Of a stretch of DNA of 41,255 nucleotides, positions 4,735-38,198 are shown piece after piece (position 1 is the stretch's first letter; each line of letters opens with the position of its first letter). This stretch comes from Candidatus Saccharimonadales bacterium. GTDB lineage: Bacteria > Patescibacteriota > Saccharimonadia > Saccharimonadales > DATIHP01. Below the pieces are notes generated by a model, which saw only the letters and a list, made by a program, of their open reading frames with translations, did no database searches and was not told the DNA's origin. The stretch lies in the NCBI GenBank assembly GCA_035480495.1, contig DATIHP010000045.1, positions 1 to 41,255 of the forward strand, given 5' to 3'. Made by a program: the position numbers and the translations under genes.

Positions 4735-4786
4735 ACCGCTTATATTACACGTATCTCACACCTAAGTGCCAGGTGTAAACGATAGG

Positions 4787-5566
4787 TTAGACGCTGCGCT
4801 TGTAGCGGTTGGTAGCTAATGGCACGAATACTATCAAAATGCCGATAGCCCAGAGCGCAATTTTCCAAACGGCGCCGTTGCCGGGGATGCCAAGCGCCAG
4901 TTCCCGGGCGGCGGTCACCACATGCGTCACCGGCTGGTTGTTAGCAAAGGCTTGCAGCCAACCCGGCATATTTTGGGTTGGTACGAACACGGCACTGGCG
5001 AAGGTCAGCGGGAAGACCATCAAAAAGCCGGCCAGCTGGGCGGTTTCCGTATCACCGGAAGCCATACCTATGACCGCCGCTATCCAACTGAAGGCGAAAC
5101 CATATAGCAACAGCACCCCTATCATGCCAACAGCGTTAAGCGCACCGTGCTGGAAACGGAAGCCCATCAGCGATCCCACGCCAATCATGATACCGATTAC
5201 TACCAGATTACGTATAGTGTCTGACAGAGTCCGGCCGGCCATCACGGCGGCACGGCTCATTGGCAAACTACGGAAGCGGTCCACGATACCCCGGCTCATG
5301 TCGTCAGCCAGCCCTATACCGGTCTGGATGGCGCCGAACATGACCACTTGGGCCAATAATCCCGGCAATAAGAAATTTATGTACTTGCCTCCTGGCACCG
5401 CGCCGATTCTAACCGCGCCTCCAAAGACATAATTGAACAGCACCAGAAACATGATGGGTTGGATTGATGAGAAGACCAGCAAGCGCGGTAGGCGGACATA
5501 GCGCAGAAGGTTGCGCTTGGTAATGGTCCAGGTATCGCTTATCTCAGAAGCAATTGCTTTAAACAT
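4787..5566 (-). CDS. ABC-2 type exporter permease (DrrB-like)
   Basis: 259 aa with about 6 TM segments. An 8-nt overlap couples it to the upstream ATPase gene, the typical ABC-2 arrangement. Confidence 0.8.
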   Translation of the reverse strand: MFKAIASEISDTWTITKRNLLRYVRLPRLLVFSSIQPIMFLVLFNYVFGGAVRIGAVPGGKYINFLLPGLLAQVVMFGAIQTGIGLADDMSRGIVDRFRSLPMSRAAVMAGRTLSDTIRNLVVIGIMIGVGSLMGFRFQHGALNAVGMIGVLLLYGFAFSWIAAVIGMASGDTETAQLAGFLMVFPLTFASAVFVPTQNMPGWLQAFANNQPVTHVVTAARELALGIPGNGAVWKIALWAIGILIVFVPLATNRYKRSV

Positions 5567-7417: not shown

Positions 7418-8398
7418 TCATAAGACTACCCTTATACGCCCAAAGTTTTTACCATTGAGATCCTTCAGCGCAATATTTTCCCATGTAAATTTTGCTTTTT
7501 CAAGCTGATTTGGCGAAAGAATACCCTGGCGAAAACTGTCATTTCTTGTATTCAATACTCCAACACCGGTCCAGAATTTCGCTATTGAGTCCTTGGTTGA
7601 GCCGACTGCTAGGAATACTCCTGAGGGTAATGGTTGGGTAAAGGCTAGGATTTTATCAGGCCTAAACGTATAACCCGCTTCCCGTTTGGTCAGTGAGATA
7701 TATGCATCATGGAGCAGAGTATTCTTCTCCATCCAAAGAGAGTCTGCGCGCTGTTGTGAATTCGGTTTTGCGTTCAGTTCAATCATTGCCGCGCGTTCCT
7801 TACTGACAACCGGTAGGCCTCCGGGTAGTTTTAGGGCAAACTTTTCTACGTCTTGCTCCAGTTTTTGATAAAACGCTTCGGGCGATTCAAACTGTTCATC
7901 GACGCCGGTTATGGTCATTTTGAAATTTTTTGGTTGATATTGCTTTAGGAAACTTAAAAGGTTCCGGTAGCTTGACTTGTAGGTCTCAACCTCAGTTAGG
8001 CTAATATTGTCCAGTTTTGGAAGTATCAGATCGTCTACGAACGAATCAAACCAAACTCCCGGTTCGTGAATCTCACAAATCGGCGCAAGCCATTTGGTGT
8101 AGTACATGAGTGCAAAGAGTTCCGCCCAGTCAACTTCTGGTGTTTCCTCAAGGCGCCAAAGTTTATAAGCTCCGTGCGTGAACATGACATTAATAGGTTT
8201 ACTCTGCTCAACGTTTGTACGTATTGCCTCTCTAATATGTGCAATGAGTTCGGGGTTAGCGGAATACTTACGGAATTTTTTGGACAACAGGATTTTTGAA
8301 ATCGCTTCAATAAGCTCTTCATTGTTTGCAGGCTTCTCTAAGCCAAGCGGCACATTGAGTTCTTTGAGTTTGGTCTGGATGTATTCTTGTGCGGTCAT
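7418..8398 (-). CDS. uncharacterised 326-aa protein, paralog 1 of a duplicated family in this locus
   Basis: It aligns over its full length with 9092..10072. Shared motifs are MTAQEYI, SKKFRK, KLW, PE[VI]DWAELF, EPG, LKQY, GSTK..AKFW and GKNF.RIR. There is no TM segment and I cannot assign a family confidently. Confidence 0.75.
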   Translation of the reverse strand: MTAQEYIQTKLKELNVPLGLEKPANNEELIEAISKILLSKKFRKYSANPELIAHIREAIRTNVEQSKPINVMFTHGAYKLWRLEETPEVDWAELFALMYYTKWLAPICEIHEPGVWFDSFVDDLILPKLDNISLTEVETYKSSYRNLLSFLKQYQPKNFKMTITGVDEQFESPEAFYQKLEQDVEKFALKLPGGLPVVSKERAAMIELNAKPNSQQRADSLWMEKNTLLHDAYISLTKREAGYTFRPDKILAFTQPLPSGVFLAVGSTKDSIAKFWTGVGVLNTRNDSFRQGILSPNQLEKAKFTWENIALKDLNGKNFGRIRVVL

Positions 8399-8476
8399 GA
8401 TTTTGGAGATGCGGGGCAGACATGAACCTGCCGTATGTAGCTTTGCAAGCTACCACCTATTCTCGGTCACCGCATC
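8399..8476 (-). promoter_or_regulatory. structured 5' leader, riboswitch-like three-way junction, copy 1
   Basis: Minus-strand RNA elements are:
- P1: GAUGCGG (8476-8470) / CCGCAUC (8414-8408)
- J1/2: UGACCGAGAAUAGGUGG
- P2: UAGCUU-GCA-AAGCUA
- J2/3: CAUAC
- P3: GGCAG-GUUCAUGU-CUGCC
Only UCCAAAAUC (9 nt, no SD) separates P1 from the AUG. The leader is part of a 100-nt block (8378-8477) identical to 10052-10151. Confidence 0.6.
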
Positions 8477-8482
8477 AGTATC

Positions 8483-8491
8483 ATTTTAACA
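8483..8491 (-). promoter_or_regulatory. extended -10 promoter TGTTAAAAT for leader copy 1
   Basis: The minus-strand TGnTAAAAT ends 6 nt upstream of the first P1 nucleotide. The homologous position in copy 2 is TGTTACAAT. Confidence 0.5.
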
Positions 8492-8516
8492 GAGATGGCT
8501 GGCTTAAATGAAAATG

Positions 8517-9095
8517 TTAGGTACTTATTCTTTCTTTGCCGAACGTGGGTCGATATATGCAGAACAGCATCACCACACAAGATAAAACTATGTAAGCTTG
8601 GAATATGACGCTCGACCTCAACCCGTCATGAACAATAGCCAAAGTTGCGGCTATACCTTCAAGCCAGTACATTAAAGGCGCTTCAGATTTTGGCAACTTC
8701 CAAGTTTTAAGCACTGCCGGTATATATGCGACTGCATCTGCCAGTATGGCAAAAGCTAATGCCCAAATGCCACTTCCTGTTACCTGCCAAGCCAGAATGC
8801 CAAGTACAGCAATAATTGCACAGCTGATATCAAGCCTGCTGGTGCCACCGATTCCTCTCTTTATTGATAAAAGCGCCAAGAGAAGGCTTCTTCCAAAGAA
8901 AAGTAGCGAAAGTAGTAAGACTCCCAGACCGGCGTGTGCCGCTATTGTCCCCACAAGATTAGCCACCGAAACTATGAAAAGTACTACACGCGTTGTCCGG
9001 TGCGGACGAGTCGTGCCTTTCAGGATGCTTAGCACATAATCTGTGGTTCCAACGACGGATAGGGTTGTGGCTATTCCCAGTAAAGCCGGTTTCAC
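8517..9095 (-). CDS. 7-TM membrane protein with 3+1+3 internal repeat (SWEET/PQ-loop/PnuC-like transporter candidate)
   Basis: 192 aa with a GTG start overlapping the upstream stop (GTGA at 9092-9095). I predict about seven hydrophobic helices. Two similar loop motifs follow helix 1 and helix 5 (SILKGTTRP and AVLKTWKLPKSE). Confidence 0.55.
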   Translation of the reverse strand: MKPALLGIATTLSVVGTTDYVLSILKGTTRPHRTTRVVLFIVSVANLVGTIAAHAGLGVLLLSLLFFGRSLLLALLSIKRGIGGTSRLDISCAIIAVLGILAWQVTGSGIWALAFAILADAVAYIPAVLKTWKLPKSEAPLMYWLEGIAATLAIVHDGLRSSVIFQAYIVLSCVVMLFCIYRPTFGKERIST

Positions 9096-10072
9096 GACGA
9101 TATTTCTTTCAAAATCCTAATTCTCTTAAAATTTTTACCTTCAAGGCCCGGGACATGGGTCTTTTGCCAATCAAATTGAGCTGTTTCCAGCTGTTTGGGT
9201 GTCAGGACAAGTTCGTTATAACTATCGCCGGCATGTTCAAGAGCTCCTACCGCGACCCAAAATTTTGCATATGACTTCTTGGTACTGCCTGTGGCGATAC
9301 AGCCTGGATAATAGGTTGGACACGAGGGAATCATTGAGGGGTCATTTATATATCTTTCCATGGTTTTGGTCCGTTCTATGCTCTGATGTATAAGCTCGGC
9401 CTTTTCGCGCCACAATGGGTCGTCCGTTTGCCCGGGTTTTAACCGCACATTAAGTTCCGTCGCTTCCCTTTGATGTTCGTCCAGTTCGGGAAGTTTGCCT
9501 CCTAGTTCTTTCGACACTTTTGCCTTGGCTTGCTCAAGTTCTGCCAGATATTCTGATATATCGCCATATTCATCGCCGTATCTTTTGTATGATACCGCAA
9601 CGTTTTCTGGCAGGTACTGTTTGAGCCAATTCAGCATAGCCACGAAAGAATCCGAGTATTTGTCCGTTTCCTGCTTGGGCAAGTTATTCATGTTTTCAAG
9701 GACAACATCTTCTGAGTAATACTCCAGCCTTGCCCCCGGCTCATAAACACTCGCGATTGATTTCATCCAGCGCAGTAGGTATGTCGTGACGAACAGCTCA
9801 GCCCAATCAATCTCCGGCGCCTCATCAAAATGCCACAGTTTATTGCCGCCAAAGATTACATTGACGACAATCGGCTTATTGTCTTTGACGGAAAGTTGTA
9901 TGGCCTTTTTAGTGATTGTTATCACGTTGTCGTCGGCTTTGAGTTTACGGAACTTCTTGGACATGACTTTAGCAAAGATGGCTTCTTCAATGGGCGTACT
10001 ACTAACATCAGTCAGTTCCGTGGACTCTTTGAGCGCCTGGAGTGTTGAGATGATGTATTCTTGTGCGGTCAT
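9092..10072 (-). CDS. uncharacterised 326-aa protein, paralog 2 of the duplicated family
   Basis: It has the same length and shared motifs as 7418..8398. Its first 7 codons and its leader are nucleotide-identical to paralog 1, and the rest is strongly diverged. Confidence 0.75.
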   Translation of the reverse strand: MTAQEYIISTLQALKESTELTDVSSTPIEEAIFAKVMSKKFRKLKADDNVITITKKAIQLSVKDNKPIVVNVIFGGNKLWHFDEAPEIDWAELFVTTYLLRWMKSIASVYEPGARLEYYSEDVVLENMNNLPKQETDKYSDSFVAMLNWLKQYLPENVAVSYKRYGDEYGDISEYLAELEQAKAKVSKELGGKLPELDEHQREATELNVRLKPGQTDDPLWREKAELIHQSIERTKTMERYINDPSMIPSCPTYYPGCIATGSTKKSYAKFWVAVGALEHAGDSYNELVLTPKQLETAQFDWQKTHVPGLEGKNFKRIRILKEISS

Positions 10073-10150
10073 GATTTTGGAGATGCGGGGCAGACATGAA
10101 CCTGCCGTATGTAGCTTTGCAAGCTACCACCTATTCTCGGTCACCGCATC
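10073..10150 (-). promoter_or_regulatory. structured 5' leader, riboswitch-like three-way junction, copy 2
   Basis: Nucleotide-identical to 8399-8476 at a constant offset of +1674. P1 strands lie at 10144-10150 and 10082-10088. Confidence 0.6.
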
Positions 10151-10156
10151 AAGATT

Positions 10157-10165
10157 ATTGTAACA
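10157..10165 (-). promoter_or_regulatory. extended -10 promoter TGTTACAAT for leader copy 2
   Basis: Minus-strand TGTTACAAT ends 6 nt upstream of P1, the same spacing as copy 1. Confidence 0.5.
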
Positions 10166-10245
10166 GCACGGCCAAGCTTGGCAGCTTCAAAATATCTCAT
10201 ACATGATTTAATTTAGGACCATGAGAACTTACGGAAATTTATTTG

Positions 10246-10351: not shown

Positions 10352-10388
10352 GTTTGTAGCCAATAAATAATAAAAAGACAAACCCAAA

Positions 10389-10415
10389 CCTCCCCGCCAT
10401 AAACGGGGAGGTTTT
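10389..10415 (+). terminator. intrinsic terminator hairpin CCUCCCCG-CCAUAAA-CGGGGAGG plus U4; its 3' arm doubles as the SD for the TTG start at 10420
   Basis: The 8-bp stem is identical to that of 3710-3732. GGAGG ends at 10411, 8 nt before TTG 10420. Confidence 0.7.
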
Positions 10416-10697: not shown

Positions 10698-12008
10698 TTA
10701 GGGCGCCAGCCGGTTGATATCCCGCGGGAACAGAGTGGCTTCTTTGACGTTATTCAGATTCAGTAATTTCTCAACCGTGCGCTCCAACCCCCAGCCGAAG
10801 CCGCCATGCGGCGGTAAGCCGTATTTGAACGCCTGCAGGTAATATTTGAAACCCGGATGCTCAGGGTCGCCCTTGGCTAATTCTTTGAGTTGTTTTACTA
10901 AGACCTCGTAACGGTGTTCGCGCATGGGTACGGTAGCTATTTCTACGCCGCGGAAAAGCAGGTCGGAGCGGTCGGCGACCTTTGGATTTTTCTCGTTGAC
11001 TTTGTGGTAGAACTTCATGCTGCTGACCGGCCACTCCGTGACATATACGGCCTCACTACCGAGGTTTTTCTTGGCATAATCGCATATCCACTTTTCCTCA
11101 TCGGGCCGCAAGTCTTCCTCGCCGACAGTTTTGGTGCCGGTGGCTTTGGAGTACAGTTCGTGTATCTGGGCCATAGTCAAAGATGGTATCGGTTCCGCCA
11201 GAACAGGTTTTTGAGCATTCCACATCTTAAGTTCAGGTCCGCAGTCCTTCCAGACCTTTTCTACGATATGGCGCAGCAGGCCGCCTGTGAAATCACGCAG
11301 TTCCTCAAAGGTCACGAAGCCCATTTCCGCATCGATGGTAATGTACTCCGTCATGTGGCGCGTGGTGGCGCTTGGTTCGGCGCGGTATGTCGGATTGGTC
11401 TCAAAGACACGCTCAAAGACGCCTACCATCATCTGCTTATAAAACTGGGCGCTCTGCGCCAGCGTGGCTTCTTTGCCAAAATAATCCAGCTTGAATACCT
11501 CGGCGCCGCCTTCAGTAGCTCCGGACAGCAGTTTGGGTGTGTTCATCTCCGTGAAACCGTTCTGGATAAAATACTCGCGCGCCGCTTCCAGGACCTTGGC
11601 TTGGATACGGAAAATAGCCGTCTCCTGTAGGTTGCGCAAACCGATGACCCGGTTATCGAACAGTGTGTCCAGGTTGTCCGGTTTGTGGCTGAGAGGCTTG
11701 TCAATCTCAACGGGCGGCTCCTCGGTCACCGGCACCAGGACCTCAATGTGCGGTTCGCGCAGTTCAGCACCGCCCGGCGCGCGCTCCTCCTTGAATACCT
11801 TGCCCTTTACTTTCAGGACCGTACCGATATGCAGACCGCGCAGTTTTTCCACCTCTTTTTTGTCTTCCACCACCATCTGGACCAAACCGCCGCGGTCACG
11901 GATGTTTATGAAGTTCAGCCCACCCAGCAGCCGCTTCTTATGCAGCCAACCCTGGATTTCCGCCTCTTTGCCGATGTGTTTAGCAATATCTGTGCTTAAA
12001 ACTCTCAT
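10698..12008 (-). CDS. aspS: aspartate--tRNA ligase, archaeal/eukaryotic type (class IIb; possibly non-discriminating)
   Basis: 436 aa with an N-terminal OB-fold anticodon-binding domain. Motifs are GATEGGAEVF...LAQSAQFYKQ, RAEPSATTRHMTEY and GLPPHGGFGWGLER. The size and the ATEGG motif fit type-2 AspRS rather than AsnRS. Confidence 0.9.
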   Translation of the reverse strand: MRVLSTDIAKHIGKEAEIQGWLHKKRLLGGLNFINIRDRGGLVQMVVEDKKEVEKLRGLHIGTVLKVKGKVFKEERAPGGAELREPHIEVLVPVTEEPPVEIDKPLSHKPDNLDTLFDNRVIGLRNLQETAIFRIQAKVLEAAREYFIQNGFTEMNTPKLLSGATEGGAEVFKLDYFGKEATLAQSAQFYKQMMVGVFERVFETNPTYRAEPSATTRHMTEYITIDAEMGFVTFEELRDFTGGLLRHIVEKVWKDCGPELKMWNAQKPVLAEPIPSLTMAQIHELYSKATGTKTVGEEDLRPDEEKWICDYAKKNLGSEAVYVTEWPVSSMKFYHKVNEKNPKVADRSDLLFRGVEIATVPMREHRYEVLVKQLKELAKGDPEHPGFKYYLQAFKYGLPPHGGFGWGLERTVEKLLNLNNVKEATLFPRDINRLAP

Positions 12009-12054
12009 CAGAGAGATTATAGGGTAACTTCCCTATTTTGATAAGGGGAGCGGC

Positions 12055-20050: not shown

Positions 20051-21748
20051 ATGCATACCTCAGTATTCGGTGAACTAAGCCTTATCATAGCTATTGCCAG
20101 CGGCATGGCGCTTATCATGCGCCTGCTCCGGCAGCCGCTTATCATCGGTCATATCCTGACCGGTATATTGGTGGGTCCGGTCGTGTTGCACCTGGTCAAA
20201 TCCGCCGATACGATTGAGATATTTTCCAATATCGGCATTGCCCTTCTGCTGTTTATCATCGGCCTGGGTCTGAATCCGCGGGTTATCCGGGAAATCGGTA
20301 AGGTAGCCGCCATCGCGGGTATGTTGCAGGTCGGTATCAGCCTGGGGTTAGGCTATGGCGCCGGTGTCATCCTGGGGTTGGGACGCACCGAAGCACTGTT
20401 CTTAGGTGTCGCCTTGTCATTTTCCAGCACGATTATCATCCTGAAACTGCTCAGCGATAAAAAAGAGCAGACGCGGCTCTATGGCAAGGTCGTCGTCGGT
20501 CTGCTGCTGGTGCAGGATATCCTGGCTACCACTGCCCTGGTATTTGTGACCGCCCATAGCGCACAGTCCGGCTTCTCAGCTCATCAGTTGCTGGTTTTAT
20601 TCATCAAAGGCTGGGCGCTTGGCGGTGCTTTGCTGTTTATCGGCAATGTCATCCTGCCGCGTATGCATCGTCTGATTGCCAGCAGCCAGGAATTCCTATT
20701 CCTGTTTGCCATTGGCTGGGGTTTTGGCAGTGCGGCCCTGTTTGAACGCGCCGGCTTCAGCCTGGAAATCGGTGCGCTGCTGGCTGGCGTCGCTTTGTCC
20801 GGTCTGCCGTATACCCAGGAAATCAGTGCCCGGCTCAGGCCTTTGCGCGACTTCTTCATCATCGTATTCTTCATATCGCTGGGCACCCGCTTGGCGTTCG
20901 GTAACCTGGCCGTGCTGATACCTATCGTCGTCATGAGCAGTTTCATAGTCATCGTGCTCAAACCGCTCATCGTGATGCTTATCATGGGTTTCATGGGTTA
21001 CACCAAACGGACCAGTTTCAAGGCGGCTATCGCTATGGGCCAGGTCAGTGAATTCTCGCTGGTATTCGTCATCTTAGGTAACCGCTCCGGCTTGGTATCC
21101 GACAATCTGGTAAGCATCGTGACTATGGTGGCGCTCGTTTCCATCGCGGCCTCGACTTATATGATTATCTACGCCGACAAATTATTCTTGGGTATCGAAG
21201 AACATCTGGAGATGTTTGAACATGGCAAGCCGCAGTTGGAGCGTGAGTCGCGGCTACATTATGATTTAGTATTGTTCGGCTATTTACGCGGCGGCCATGA
21301 GTTCCTGAAACTGTTCCGCAGTCTGGGCAAACGCTATGTGGTCGTCGATTATGATCCAGAAGTAATCGACACGCTGGAGCATCAGAAGGCCAATTACCTC
21401 TACGGCGACGCGACGGACATAGAACTGCTCGAGGAAGTCGGTCTGGAGCATAGTAAGCTCATTGTCTCAGCCATGAGCGACCATGATACCAATGTCTTTC
21501 TCGTCAAACTGGCTGAGGGTATCAACCCCGGAGCCGTTGTCATCTGTTATGCCGAAAACGCCGTCCAGGCGGAGGAATTGTACAGGCTGGGCGCCAGTTA
21601 TGTGATGGTATCCCACTACATCGGTAGTGAAAAAATCAGTTCGTTCATCCGGCGCAGCGGCCTGAAGAAAAGTGAGTTCAAGAAATACCGCGAAAAGCAC
21701 CTGGCTTATCTCCAGACACATTTTCAGTCTGCGGTCGTAGTCGAATAA
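20051..21748 (+). CDS. cation:proton antiporter (CPA2, Kef-type) with C-terminal RCK/TrkA-N domain
   Basis: 565 aa with about 12 TM helices of Na+/H+-exchanger type. The soluble C-terminal domain has a VLFGYLRGG Rossmann-like start. An extended -10 TGTAGAAT lies upstream. Confidence 0.8.
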   Translation: MHTSVFGELSLIIAIASGMALIMRLLRQPLIIGHILTGILVGPVVLHLVKSADTIEIFSNIGIALLLFIIGLGLNPRVIREIGKVAAIAGMLQVGISLGLGYGAGVILGLGRTEALFLGVALSFSSTIIILKLLSDKKEQTRLYGKVVVGLLLVQDILATTALVFVTAHSAQSGFSAHQLLVLFIKGWALGGALLFIGNVILPRMHRLIASSQEFLFLFAIGWGFGSAALFERAGFSLEIGALLAGVALSGLPYTQEISARLRPLRDFFIIVFFISLGTRLAFGNLAVLIPIVVMSSFIVIVLKPLIVMLIMGFMGYTKRTSFKAAIAMGQVSEFSLVFVILGNRSGLVSDNLVSIVTMVALVSIAASTYMIIYADKLFLGIEEHLEMFEHGKPQLERESRLHYDLVLFGYLRGGHEFLKLFRSLGKRYVVVDYDPEVIDTLEHQKANYLYGDATDIELLEEVGLEHSKLIVSAMSDHDTNVFLVKLAEGINPGAVVICYAENAVQAEELYRLGASYVMVSHYIGSEKISSFIRRSGLKKSEFKKYREKHLAYLQTHFQSAVVVE

Positions 21749-22326
21749 AGCTTATGTCTTTTTATATATCTTTGTACTGCTGGGGGCAAGCCGTCAGCAG
21801 CTTTGTCCCGCTTGAGCAGCAGACGGATAGTTGAGGAGGTTACCTCTTCATAGGCAGGGTGAATGATTTCATATCTGAAGCGCAGGTTGCGGGTCTTTTC
21901 CAGGGTGTGAAGTGTCGCCGTGAGGTCGGACATATCCCGGAGTCGCGCAGCAATCATAAGTTCGGCCACATTCACCATGGCGCCTACATGCGGCCAGCTG
22001 GCGATATGGCTTATGACGTCCGCACCGAATAGCAGCACTAACTGATAGCCCGCAAAACGGGCCTGCAATTTCGGCAATGTCTCATGCACCGTGAAACGGG
22101 CCTGTTCCAAGGCAATTATGCCATAGCGGCCTTCATGGGCAATCGCCAAACGTACCATAGCGCGGCGGTGTTCAAGCGCCCGCACACCTTGTTTGCGGCG
22201 CGGCCGGGGCTCGGGCAAGAACATGACTTTCTCTAAGCCCGCATCTAAGGCCGCCTGTGCGAAGGCGATATGGCCGTCATGAATCGGGTCGAAGGTTCCG
22301 GCAAATATACCTATTTTTTTGGTCAT
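21724..22326 (-). CDS. nadD: nicotinate-nucleotide adenylyltransferase
   Basis: GIFAGTFDPIHDGHI matches the (H/T)xGH nucleotidyltransferase motif, and a C-terminal SSTIR motif is present. I place the start at ATG 22326, which overlaps the upstream gene's TGA (ATGA). The track ORF extends to 22353. Confidence 0.85.
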   Translation of the reverse strand: MTKKIGIFAGTFDPIHDGHIAFAQAALDAGLEKVMFLPEPRPRRKQGVRALEHRRAMVRLAIAHEGRYGIIALEQARFTVHETLPKLQARFAGYQLVLLFGADVISHIASWPHVGAMVNVAELMIAARLRDMSDLTATLHTLEKTRNLRFRYEIIHPAYEEVTSSTIRLLLKRDKAADGLPPAVQRYIKRHKLYSTTTAD

Positions 22327-23792
22327 GCTGCTTTTAGTATACCTACCGCCCATGAGCCAGCTTTAGATTTTTCCCTTTTTGGCGGCTTACTTTCATGCAG
22401 TACTTTTCCGTCACAGATGTCTACTTCATATTTACAGTGTGGGCAGCGCCAACTTTTTTCTTTGACTACATCTTTTTTATTGACAGTTTCACGGCATTTT
22501 ATGCAGCGGATTTTTCCCGATTTGGAATCAGTTTCATCGTTTAATCGGTCGCTTGATTGTTCATCTGTATTTTCCTGGCCGTCTTTATTTTTTTCCTCCT
22601 GGAGGGCCCCGGGACAGGACGAAGATTTGGCAGTTTTTTCAGCATTGTGAAGAGCGGCGTCGGCTAATTCATAATTTCCTGATGCACGATGCGTACGAGC
22701 CTGTTGTATGTGGCCAGCTGCTGTTGGACCAAATACATTTGGATTAATTGACTTGTCGTCTACTGCGTTTCGCACCCCTGCTTTTTCTGATAATTTACCT
22801 AAGCGCTTGGTAGCATCCGTTGGTGTTTTAAATGTATGCCTTTCGCTAATCAGTTGGCGCCTGATATCTTCGACCATAGATTTAAGACCCGCTTGGCGCT
22901 GCCTCCAAAATTCTCTATGTTTTACATAGTCTTGCTGAGGTTTATCTTCTCCAAAAAATGTTCCCTCCGGCTCATCAAACCAAGCCACTGGGTCAACCAC
23001 ACCATTCGGCATTAATTTTTTAGGTATTAACAGGGGGGAATCTAGTATTTGAGTAGTTGACATGTTATCAAAATTTTTACCTAGTTTCTTGGCTATATAT
23101 TTGACTGCTTTTATGTCATGCCTCTCGGCTCCTGGACGCTTAACCCCTGCTACAAATGCAGATTCCAACTTTACACTGTCTTCTTGCGCCGTTGTCGCCT
23201 GCATAGCACAAGACATTGTGTCTACAAAAAAGTCTTCTTCAATCAATTCTTCTTGGGTCATATTATCCGGGACAAGTGAAAAGACGACAAAATAGTTATC
23301 CTCTAGCAGGCCCATCTCCTGGGCAATATCTTGACGATATTTATTGCGAGCCTCTGCTTGCAAGCGTTCACGCATTTGCCAGGTACGGCCAACGAAACGC
23401 AAGCTATTGCCATTTACTGAATCCAGGCTCTGGCCATGCTGTCCAAGACCGTTTTGCCCGTCTGCACGCAAGTCAACTTCCGTGATTGAGCCAGCCTTAA
23501 AACTACGCTCTATGTAATCTGCCTCAATGTTTTGATCTACCATATTTATGCCGTTCGCATCGCCAGCAGCGGCTAAGCGGATTCCTTCTAAGAGGTTATG
23601 GGAAATGCCTGGATGTTGGTCACTTTTTTTTGGCAATTCACCCGCCACTGCTAAAGAACCGTTAGCTCTCATGAGTCGTTTGGCGCGTTGTTGTGCCAGC
23701 TGGTCTTCGGGCATCGTGGGCATAACAATCACATCAGTTGCCATCCGTTCTGCGGTTGGTAATCGTTCGGCTATCGCGGCTGCTCCGGCCAT
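22323..23792 (-). CDS. orphan ~489-aa soluble protein with C-terminal CxxC...CxxC zinc ribbon and Lys-rich tail
   Basis: The track ORF runs to 23909 with a GTG start. ATG 23792 has GAGGG 7 nt upstream, and the 39-codon extension is Cys-rich, non-protein-like and overlaps a strong hairpin. The zinc ribbon is IRCIKCRET...WRCPHCKYE. I recognise no family. Confidence 0.6.
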   Translation of the reverse strand: MAGAAAIAERLPTAERMATDVIVMPTMPEDQLAQQRAKRLMRANGSLAVAGELPKKSDQHPGISHNLLEGIRLAAAGDANGINMVDQNIEADYIERSFKAGSITEVDLRADGQNGLGQHGQSLDSVNGNSLRFVGRTWQMRERLQAEARNKYRQDIAQEMGLLEDNYFVVFSLVPDNMTQEELIEEDFFVDTMSCAMQATTAQEDSVKLESAFVAGVKRPGAERHDIKAVKYIAKKLGKNFDNMSTTQILDSPLLIPKKLMPNGVVDPVAWFDEPEGTFFGEDKPQQDYVKHREFWRQRQAGLKSMVEDIRRQLISERHTFKTPTDATKRLGKLSEKAGVRNAVDDKSINPNVFGPTAAGHIQQARTHRASGNYELADAALHNAEKTAKSSSCPGALQEEKNKDGQENTDEQSSDRLNDETDSKSGKIRCIKCRETVNKKDVVKEKSWRCPHCKYEVDICDGKVLHESKPPKREKSKAGSWAVGILKAA

Positions 23793-23820: not shown

Positions 23821-23992
23821 CTATGAATCAAATTCAACGCTCCTGCTCGGGAGACTTTATGTATGTTGTATCGGGCTTTAACCGTTGCGGCACAGCATAG
23901 GAATTTCACCTATTTCCAACAATTTTTATTAATAAAGAACCTGTGAGTAGTAGTGTAACACGGCCCATAGACGCTATATGTAGTATTTTTGT

Positions 23993-26881: not shown

Positions 26882-26890
26882 CGGTCTTAA

Positions 26891-27343
26891 TTATACCCTG
26901 GCCTTGAGTTGGCTCAGACGCGGTATGAAACTTTGGGCGGCACCTTCCAGGCCTAATACCCTGAGCGCCCCGATAAGTACGTAAAGTTCATCCAGTTCAT
27001 GGTTCTTGAGCGCCGGCTGCTGTTCGGCTTGTTTGAACCGGAACTCTACTTTCTCTACCAACCATTTTTCGTCGCCGGGCTTAATTTCATTAGTTGGCAG
27101 CTTTGGACTGTCTTCAGCCTGGACCACTTCCAGCGAACGGGCCGAATGGTCGCGTTTTTGGACGTGTCCGCGTTTGATAAGGTTATTGACATGCAGGGCT
27201 ACCGTCGCAACGGATGAATAATTGAGCCCTGCCATGATTTCGCGGTAACTGGGGCTATAGCCATGCTCGGCAATGAAAGCTTCGATATAAGCGAGCAGTT
27301 CGCGTTGTTTTTTTGTTGGCCGAGTGGTTTGTTGTTCAGGCAT
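26891..27343 (-). CDS. LexA-type winged-helix DNA-binding protein lacking the S24 peptidase domain
   Basis: From ATG 27343, KKQRELLAYIEAFIAEHGYSPSYREIMAGLNYSSVATVALHVNNLIKRGHV matches the LexA N-terminal domain pattern. The C-terminal ~70 aa are helical with no Ser/Lys dyad region. The track ORF extends to 27463 and overlaps the GtrA-like gene. Confidence 0.65.
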   Translation of the reverse strand: MPEQQTTRPTKKQRELLAYIEAFIAEHGYSPSYREIMAGLNYSSVATVALHVNNLIKRGHVQKRDHSARSLEVVQAEDSPKLPTNEIKPGDEKWLVEKVEFRFKQAEQQPALKNHELDELYVLIGALRVLGLEGAAQSFIPRLSQLKARV

Positions 27344-32207: not shown

Positions 32208-33765
<1,558 letters not shown>

Positions 33766-38105: not shown

Positions 38106-38198
38106 TGCCACTATTCTAGGGGAGATTGTGCAATCATTCAAATTGACTGCCGGCAGGCGACTATCTATACTTACGGGGTTATCGAGTAAGAAGGGACT

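Follow-up and report, generated by a model that had tools for sequence, protein, structure and literature searches.

The contig DATIHP010000045.1 of Candidatus Saccharimonadales bacterium (assembly GCA_035480495.1) was analysed over a stretch of 41,255 nucleotides (nt), positions 1 to 41,255, referred to below as the window. It carries two genes for paralogous proteins of 326 amino acids (aa), here called paralogs A and B, and each gene is preceded by the same leader, which appears to encode an RNA related to cysteine tRNA (tRNA-Cys). This RNA and the gene that follows it are the subject of the present study, and the features of the two units are listed below.

An identical leader in front of two paralogous genes

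7418-8398, minus strand: paralog A, 326 aa, predicted PvcA/IsnA-type fold, distantly like class Ic aminoacyl-tRNA synthetases (aaRS) (AlphaFold2 model with a predicted local distance difference test score, pLDDT, of 96.5; Foldseek).
8399-8403, minus strand: spacer AAAUC from the CCA to the AUG of paralog A, without a Shine-Dalgarno (SD) sequence; the same spacer stands before paralog B at 10073-10077.
8404-8476, minus strand: putative tRNA-Cys-like RNA, copy 1; G1 at 8476, C72 at 8408, U73 at 8407, CCA at 8406-8404 (covariance model R1, 98.4 bits, E 9e-22).
8378-8477, no strand assigned: exact 100-nt repeat, copy 1, from position -1 via the RNA and the spacer to codon 7; partner 10052-10151.
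8483-8491, minus strand: predicted extended -10 promoter of copy 1, TGTTAAAAT; its hexamer TAAAAT (8488-8483) ends 6 nt before G1.
9092-10072, minus strand: paralog B, 326 aa, 36% identical to A and of a separate conserved subfamily (weak DIT1_PvcA match, E 0.0046).
10078-10150, minus strand: putative tRNA-Cys-like RNA, copy 2, with the same sequence as copy 1, inside the 100-nt repeat (R1, 98.4 bits).
10052-10151, no strand assigned: exact 100-nt repeat, copy 2 (exact-run comparison).
10157-10165, minus strand: predicted extended -10 promoter of copy 2, TGTTACAAT; a promoter scan gave a -35-like CTGCCA (10184-10179), a 16-nt spacer and TACAAT with the TG.
10386-10414, minus strand: predicted intrinsic terminator downstream of aspS (10698-12008), with a 13-bp stem and a T-rich tail (terminator scan).

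Self-comparison of the window gave 8378-8477 and 10052-10151 as its longest exact run (100 nt, 100% identical, offset 1674), and a repeat finder returned the same pair as a 138-nt family with 90% identity (8355-8492 and 10029-10166). Identity is lost sharply on both flanks, and judging from its length and perfection such a repeat cannot have arisen by chance within 41 kb. On the minus strand each copy consists of one base before G1, the first nucleotide of the RNA, followed by the 73-nt structured RNA, a 5-nt spacer and codons 1-7 (MTAQEYI), which are common to both open reading frames (ORFs). An earlier interpretation of this DNA from its letters and ORFs (below, the sequence-only reading) had described a 100-nt identical block made up of a leader and seven codons, after which the copies diverge abruptly, and the exact-run comparison agrees with it in both respects, the proteins being otherwise 36% identical.

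Fold and conservation of the leader RNA

In copy 1 an acceptor stem of 7 base pairs (bp), GAUGCGG/CCGCAUC, is followed by U8-G9, by the D arm ACC(G)-AGAAU-(A)GGU and by G26. The anticodon arm is GUAGC-UUGCAAA-GCUAC, with GCA at positions 34-36 and A37, the variable region AUAC leads into the T arm GGCAG-GUUCAUGU-CUGCC, and the 3' end is formed by the discriminator U73 and CCA, with the spacer AAAUC and the AUG behind them. The minimum free energy (MFE) fold of the 73-mer is this cloverleaf (-29.4 kcal/mol, z = -3.14), and none of 200 shuffled sequences folded as well. When a transcript of 117 nt was modeled, the AUG and the first codons were unpaired in the MFE fold.

The cloverleaf was supported by covariation among 54 homologous leaders, here called the Saccharibacteria type, which were collected as described in the next section. 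With the cloverleaf pairing imposed on their alignment 97% of the cells were paired, against 32-44% in slid controls, and compensatory double changes occurred at 15 of the 20 pairs, observed values that were reached by none of 500 shuffles. RNAalifold, run independently, gave the same four helices, and the leader element thereby has the 7-bp acceptor and the covarying D, anticodon and T stems that make up a tRNA cloverleaf. The tRNA core nucleotides U8, A14, G15, A21 and C48 are invariant in these leaders, together with U73 and the CCA. The sequence is best conserved at the acceptor end, where GAUG...CAUCUCCA is invariant, and in the D arm and core, and least so in the T arm.

The three helices P1 to P3 of the sequence-only reading are thus real, they show the covariation in homologous leaders that was to be looked for as a check, and they correspond to the acceptor, anticodon and T arms. 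What had been taken for a 17-nt single-stranded joiner between P1 and P2 is instead the D arm, with a covarying 3-bp helix ACC/GGU, and given this helix the supposed three-way junction becomes a four-way cloverleaf.

The RNA always begins with GAUG (8473-8476 and 10147-10150, minus strand, in the window), GAUG/CAUCUC is invariant, and the pairs A2:U71 and U3:A70 never vary in the 54 leaders. This beginning contains an AUG whose spacing to the -10 box equals that of the start codon in leaderless genes, and which in the window continues as AUG-CGG-UGA. The idea that A2-U3-G4 opens a leaderless mini-ORF was considered and rejected, since the "stop" at positions 8-10 becomes UGG wherever the D-stem pair 10:25 covaries, which points to a structural rather than a coding constraint and makes the mini-ORF unlikely.

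Linkage of the RNA to one gene family

Through protein homology 80 genome loci were gathered, and the leader was sought directly upstream of the gene. A homologous element was present there in 74 of the 80, the ATG following the acceptor end after 2-18 nt (71 loci; mode 10-11 nt counting UCCA), so that the tRNA-like fold abuts the mRNA end in the manner of the t-elements discussed below. The covariance model R1, built from these leaders, matched only gene-linked elements in 581 kb, except for one canonical tRNA-Cys in locus L001, and no free-standing copy of the element was found with it in the 581 kb.

For the reverse test, metagenome contigs were scanned with a DNA pattern of the D arm. The pattern was too loose, its AAC variant matching many unrelated high-GC coding sequences, and the elements counted as true were the 40 matches with the acceptor prefix GAT (normally GATG). 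The gene stood at the normal distance in 35 of them and 190 nt downstream in one, two were cut by contig ends and two were truncated 5' remnants; the gene accordingly follows 36 of the 38 elements that are not cut off by a contig end. Taken together, the protein-first and DNA-first scans indicate that the link between RNA and gene holds both ways. It is kept across very deep lineages of Patescibacteria, and with one protein family only, and as judged from these scans the pairing is conserved across Saccharibacteria and other Patescibacteria. The unit also occurs in oral and rumen genomes of the Nanosyncoccus type, such as L032 and L047.

A few loci depart from this arrangement. A complete element lies about 190 nt from its B-type gene in L127, and two truncated 5' fragments of 28 and 44 nt (L129, 721-748; L157, minus strand, 131-174) run into unrelated sequence, have no family gene and look like deletion remnants. 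No recognisable element precedes the gene in L030, L056, L059, L069 and L075, of which L030 keeps a remnant ...CACAUCUCAU-AUG. The homolog in L028, labelled Moraniibacteriota, has no tRNA-Cys-like leader and has a tRNA-Ser(GCU) gene (2801-2888) about 110 nt upstream. Distant homologs in high-GC organisms (L204 and L205; E 1e-65 to 1e-37 against the family profile) have no tRNA-like leader, and the RNA linkage seems to be confined to the Patescibacteria branch.

Kinship with tRNA-Cys and loss of decoding features

The whole window was searched against Rfam 15 at gathering thresholds, and both copies at E<=10, the latter being a check that the sequence-only reading had proposed, and even at this limit neither copy gave a match. 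ARAGORN called no tRNA anywhere in the window, and the Saccharibacteria-type leaders of L001, L004, L013, L017, L055 and L079 also fail the Rfam tRNA and ARAGORN definitions. In 18-20 loci of other Patescibacteria (labelled Paceibacterota, Shapirobacteria, Levyibacteriota and others), on the other hand, ARAGORN called the element at the same position a tRNA-Cys(GCA), and the eight such canonical-type leaders that were scanned scored 41-58 bits on RF00005, the gathering score of which is 29 bits. These calls and scores argue that the element is homologous to tRNA-Cys.

Comparison of 18 canonical-type leaders showed that canonical forms grade into the Saccharibacteria type. Two of the 18 have the normal anticodon loop CUGCAAA and 16 have CCGCAAG, with C33, at a position where U33 is near-universal in tRNA, and the GG of the D loop is already gone in six. 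In the Saccharibacteria type the D loop is in addition reduced in size, and the T loop has 8 nt, with the consensus nnUnRUGn and no T-psi-C consensus. The elbow that G18G19 and a 7-nt T-psi-C-R-A loop form in tRNA is thus absent, the D region being GAGAAUAGG without a GG loop. The usual 7-nt anticodon loop with U33 is absent as well: among the 54 leaders, 25 have U, 23 have C and six have G at position 33, and positions 32:38 are pairable in 50, with covariation (UA 27, CG 15, UG 8), leaving a loop of 5 nt. U73 is invariant, and GCA is present in 46 of the 54 and in all 18 canonical-type leaders. U73, GCA and the core make up the identity set of tRNA-Cys, and a purine-purine mismatch at 13:22 is a trait of bacterial tRNA-Cys.

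In an 821-kb contig from Saccharibacteria (L001) a canonical tRNA-Cys (5296-5369) exists separately from the leader, 1.3 kb downstream of the gene to which the leader is linked. It has the acceptor GGCGCCU (GAUGCGG in the leader), the loop CUGCAAA and an encoded CCA. From its sequence relationships we conclude that the window element is, in all probability, a non-decoding tRNA-like RNA derived from tRNA-Cys.

Promoter, start codon and 3' end

Of 77 elements, 72 have a TGnTAnnnT box whose end lies 6-7 nt before G1, and 63 of these include the TG. From this conserved spacing transcription is predicted to start at G1 or A2, without a 5' leader, just as the sequence-only reading had placed the start from TGTTAAAAT or TGTTACAAT at its helix P1, and RNase P would not be needed, the start being at G1. 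The enzyme genes are without an SD in all loci. The lack of an SD in the window had been pointed out before, and the stretch "UCCAAAAUC" that stands there is the discriminator, CCA and spacer. Of 33 long ORFs in the window only nine have an SD, and in many window genes a -10 box resembling TATAAT ends 7-8 nt ahead of the ATG (e.g. 12008-12024 (aspS), 32216-32231, 4735-4750, 38106-38121 and 26882-26898). Together these features suggest that this organism commonly makes leaderless mRNAs.

The translational ON/OFF switch that had been proposed, with the 5' strand of P1 pairing with codons 2-3, was not borne out. The pairing is complete in only 11 of 71 loci, its mean of 4.28 out of 6 positions compares with 4.25 +/- 0.03 for random combinations of leaders and coding sequences from different loci, and the AUG is unpaired in the predicted fold.

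UCCA is present in all 54 Saccharibacteria-type leaders, and the neighbouring tRNA genes there encode CCA in 38 of 39 cases. In CCA-less lineages the leader is also without CCA, and the ATG may follow the discriminator by a single nucleotide. That the leader obeys the CCA-encoding convention of its host is indirect evidence that its 3' end may be matured as a tRNA end, leaving a leaderless or very short-leader mRNA.

The terminator at 10414-10386, predicted to be a strong one, would make the copy-2 unit its own transcription unit, apart from the upstream aspS. This hairpin, between aspS and the copy-2 promoter, is bidirectional (AAACCUCCCCG...CGGGGAGGUUU), with T runs on both strands.

The encoded proteins

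The protein family comprises 896 homologs, every one annotated "hypothetical", and Pfam and NCBIfam searches of the two paralogs gave no match above threshold, paralog A having no Pfam domain at all. Paralog B scored 16.9 bits against PF05141 (DIT1_PvcA), below the Pfam gathering score of 26.4, and weak sub-threshold DIT1_PvcA matches were seen in 57 of 121 family members (best 6.5e-6). A profile search of the PDB returned the isonitrile synthase PIsnA (E 0.04), with K79, D90, E93 and P113-G114 aligned. With the AlphaFold2 model Foldseek found PIsnA (9dhm/9dh4, E 1e-10) and PvcA (3e59, E 1e-8; range 1e-10 to 1e-7), at template modeling (TM) scores of 0.56-0.65 over about 330 columns, as for a shared fold, and then, as much weaker matches, tyrosyl- and tryptophanyl-tRNA synthetases (TyrRS, TrpRS) and cyclodipeptide synthases (E 2e-4 to 2e-2, TM about 0.3). 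On the basis of the model, the protein appears to belong, as a distant member, to the PvcA/IsnA fold group, a group similar in turn to the catalytic domain of class Ic aaRS and cyclodipeptide synthases.

A basic motif, K40-K41-F-R43-K44, is invariant in the family, and conservation is also seen at H75-G76 and T268-K269-x-S271; searches of Pfam and NCBIfam gave no aaRS match. The possibility that H75-G76 and T268-K-x-S271 are the HIGH and KMSKS motifs of a cryptic aaRS was not substantiated: the best relatives in structure and sequence are isonitrile synthases, which are without these motifs, and the likeness to TyrRS is at fold level only.

Gene copies within genomes

Subfamily B is conserved in its own right, and B-type genes in L081 and L082 carry the same leader. 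The leader is also found with a third subfamily, seen in metagenome loci (L096, L103, L164 and L194), of about 335 aa, with the N-terminus MTAQ[DE]Y[LI]QS..Q.C..YVL[ST]D.DK.

L081 is syntenic with the window and comes from a related organism. Its two leaders show no difference from the promoter to the end of the anticodon arm, differ at six positions in the T arm, and share the loop CCCGCAAGG where the window has CUUGCAAAG. Leaders are thus closer within a genome than to their orthologs, which points to concerted evolution by gene conversion and would explain the 100-nt identity. The L081 pair makes the gene conversion between copies that was suggested earlier plausible, and gene conversion or concerted evolution is likewise a plausible origin of the leader identity of paralogs A and B.

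Proposed mechanism and alternatives

The reading that we prefer, and to which we give an even chance, is that an RNA gene derived from tRNA-Cys, no longer decoding, is fused head-to-tail to the gene of a PvcA/IsnA-fold enzyme, that the RNA is the ligand of this enzyme, and that cleavage at its 3' end releases a near-leaderless mRNA. Transcription would begin at G1 of the cloverleaf from the extended -10 promoter. The primary transcript would then be cut at the tRNA-like 3' end, as host tRNAs are, by RNase Z or by an endonuclease with subsequent trimming, giving a free CCA-ended tRNA-like RNA and an mRNA that is leaderless or has a 5-nt leader. The RNA would be bound by the co-encoded protein, most likely as an adaptor or substrate outside translation, possibly cysteinylated by cysteinyl-tRNA synthetase (CysRS); an alternative role within the same reading would be that of an autoregulatory operator of the protein.

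Several points weigh against this proposal. Three of its steps, 3' cleavage, aminoacylation and binding of the RNA by the protein, are inferred, and the T arm, by which RNase P and RNase Z chiefly recognise their substrates, is conserved least of all and has a non-canonical loop. GCA is replaced by GAA or GGA in eight of the 54 Saccharibacteria-type leaders, with altered loop lengths, which argues against an obligatory CysRS step. Each paralog (A, B and the third type) keeps its own leader, which favours a need in cis, as a trans-acting RNA would need one copy only. No second canonical tRNA-Cys was found within the short flanks of the further Saccharibacteria loci, and coexistence was seen in L001 only. 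The likeness of the protein to TyrRS is weak (E 2e-4 to 1e-2, TM about 0.3), and to our knowledge PvcA/IsnA enzymes act on free amino acids rather than on tRNA.

The main rival is a bacterial "t-element", an element of processing and expression that acts only in cis: an ancestral tRNA-Cys would have provided a promoter and a 3' cleavage site, and after another tRNA-Cys took over decoding the cloverleaf would have been kept as a signal for leaderless mRNA, with no tie to the function of the protein. It fits with the copy kept by every paralog and the absence of free copies in the scans, with the promoter at G1, the short SD-less spacers and a genome rich in leaderless-looking genes, and with the graded decay of decoding features, and plant mitochondrial t-elements provide a precedent (PMC1920247). 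We nevertheless regard it as unlikely, since a promoter 7 nt before the ATG, as in other genes here, would give the same mRNA without any RNA element, conservation peaks at the acceptor end, D arm and core and falls off most in the T arm, the part read by RNase Z and RNase P, and U73 and GCA are kept while the linkage to one protein family extends over very deep lineages of Patescibacteria. If instead the protein acted on the real tRNA-Cys or Cys-tRNA, and in excess bound its own leader and blocked processing or initiation by the logic of E. coli thrS, the leader would be an autoregulatory tRNA-mimic operator. A mimic right at the start codon of each paralog, a fold related to the tRNA-binding class Ic aaRS and cyclodipeptide synthases, and the invariant K40-K41-F-R43-K44 motif would all suit such an operator, and leaders identical within a genome are expected if both answer to one factor. 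The leader acceptor GAUGCGG is, however, wholly unlike the GGCGCCU of the canonical L001 tRNA-Cys, there is no sequestration of an SD or AUG to compete with, and many lineages have an element that by its score would still pass as a genuine tRNA; we rate the operator as unlikely too, and if anything less probable than the t-element.

Cloverleaf, U73, GCA and CCA are all present in the element, and other Patescibacteria have versions that look canonical, including two in which the loop is a normal CUGCAAA, as would be expected of an odd but genuine decoding tRNA-Cys isoacceptor that is merely co-transcribed with the downstream gene. Co-transcripts of tRNA and mRNA are known in bacteria, e.g. for tufB. 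This account is nonetheless improbable: the window copies fail ARAGORN and the Rfam tRNA model, lack G18G19 and have a T loop of 8 nt; U is not kept at position 33, 32:38 is Watson-Crick paired, C33 occurs in 16 of the 18 "canonical" versions and GCA is gone in eight of 54; L001 has a separate standard tRNA-Cys; and in the scans the element was never found without the gene. The least probable account, to which we attach hardly any weight, is a metabolite-sensing riboswitch with a translational ON/OFF platform. The sequence-only reading had called the leader riboswitch-like and of no known class, and of this the absence of an Rfam match stands, as does a conserved structured 5' RNA. The riboswitch itself is replaced by a cloverleaf derived from tRNA-Cys, with GCA, a discriminator U and CCA, which explains the whole fold, the "junction" nucleotides being tRNA core positions. 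Neither a match to a curated aptamer nor a conserved alternative pairing was found for the leader, the proposed pairing being without covariation and the AUG unpaired. The only riboswitch in the window is an AdoCbl-II (adenosylcobalamin) element at 23857-23935 (minus strand; 47.9 bits, gathering score 36.5), just upstream of a 489-aa ORF without a Pfam match (22323-23792), after which a cytidylyltransferase-like gene follows (21724-22353).

Going further than the preferred reading of an enzyme with an RNA ligand, the element may belong to an unrecognised tRNA-dependent system in Patescibacteria, near-universal in Saccharibacteria, in which a dedicated, ribosome-excluded adaptor RNA derived from tRNA-Cys is made 1:1, on one common transcript, with new PvcA/IsnA-fold enzymes (2-3 paralogs per genome) that charge its aminoacyl/CCA end, or modify or transfer a group attached to it. 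This wider proposal is tentative, and we think it rather doubtful as a whole. If it were true, one possible chemistry would be on the alpha-amino group of tRNA-bound cysteine, and release of the RNA would also create the leaderless mRNA.

The tiny genomes of Saccharibacteria and Patescibacteria keep the gene pair in most members, often in 2-3 copies, which implies that it is probably important, and still the RNA is invisible to ARAGORN and Rfam, the two annotation tools tried, and the protein is annotated only as "hypothetical". For a family of about 900 homologs the pairing offers a functional lead, namely binding to, or chemistry on, a tRNA-Cys-like RNA. The leaders form a new structured-RNA family, suited to Rfam submission, and a natural series of a tRNA gene that sheds its decoding features while apparently being kept for another role. 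They are also a candidate bacterial case of tRNA-punctuated production of leaderless mRNA.

Neighbouring genes

A functional link to the neighbouring class II aaRS was rejected: it is an ordinary non-discriminating aspartyl-tRNA synthetase (NF003483, 462 bits), stands behind a terminator and is not kept beside the unit elsewhere. A 192-aa membrane protein and a 212-aa protein without a family match were likewise rejected as conserved neighbours, not being syntenic in L001 or L082. The 192-aa multi-pass membrane protein (8517-9095, minus strand, in the window; 9596-10174 in L081), which has no family match, is encoded directly upstream of the paralog-A unit in both, and in the window its gene overlaps the stop codon of paralog B. 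PADLOC gave no match to a defence system.

Comparison with known systems

A search of a literature library on tRNA-like RNAs or tRNA-Cys in Saccharibacteria, Patescibacteria or the candidate phyla radiation (CPR) found nothing relevant. The leader can be compared with better known systems. With bacterial tRNA-Cys (RF00005) it shares the four-arm cloverleaf, the 7-bp acceptor, U8/A14/G15/A21/C48, the purine-purine 13:22 mismatch, GCA, A37, U73 and CCA. It differs in having no G18G19, an 8-nt T loop, a variable position 33 and a 32:38 pair, in falling below the Rfam and ARAGORN thresholds, and in its invariant GAUG/CAUC acceptor end and constant fusion to one protein gene.

The E. coli thrS leader is a translational operator that mimics a tRNA, albeit only its anticodon arm, and competes with the SD. 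Both cases combine a tRNA look-alike in the leader with a gene product of aaRS-related fold, but the present leader mimics a whole tRNA including the CCA, has no SD, and has an acceptor stem unlike that of the genuine tRNA-Cys. For the protein, the isonitrile synthases PvcA, IsnA and DIT1 (PF05141; PDB 3e59, 9dh4, 9dhm) are the best structural match, albeit at only 13-16% identity and below the Pfam threshold, and we know of no member of this group that is linked to tRNA.

Staphylococcus has non-proteogenic tRNA-Gly isoacceptors that are dedicated to the non-ribosomal enzymes FmhB, FemA and FemB and are kept from EF-Tu and the ribosome via changes in the D and T loops (PMC7826273). In the leader RNA both of these loops have diverged. 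The staphylococcal RNAs are free-standing genes with normal anticodon loops and a proven use, whereas the leader RNA is fused to the mRNA of an enzyme that has a different fold, and its charging and use are putative. In the t-elements and tRNA punctuation of plant mitochondria a tRNA-like structure at the mRNA end is the signal for an endonuclease (PMC1920247). Here too a tRNA-like structure abuts the mRNA end and would define the 5' end of the mRNA. The leader differs in being bacterial, in its predicted promoter exactly at G1, in the strong conservation of the acceptor and D arm, in having kept U73, GCA and CCA, and in its association with one protein family only. The broad kind, tRNA-like structures derived from tRNA, is thus known, and what is new is the fusion to a gene of the isonitrile-synthase fold, together with a promoter placed at G1, conservation over a wide range of lineages and a stepwise loss of decoding features.

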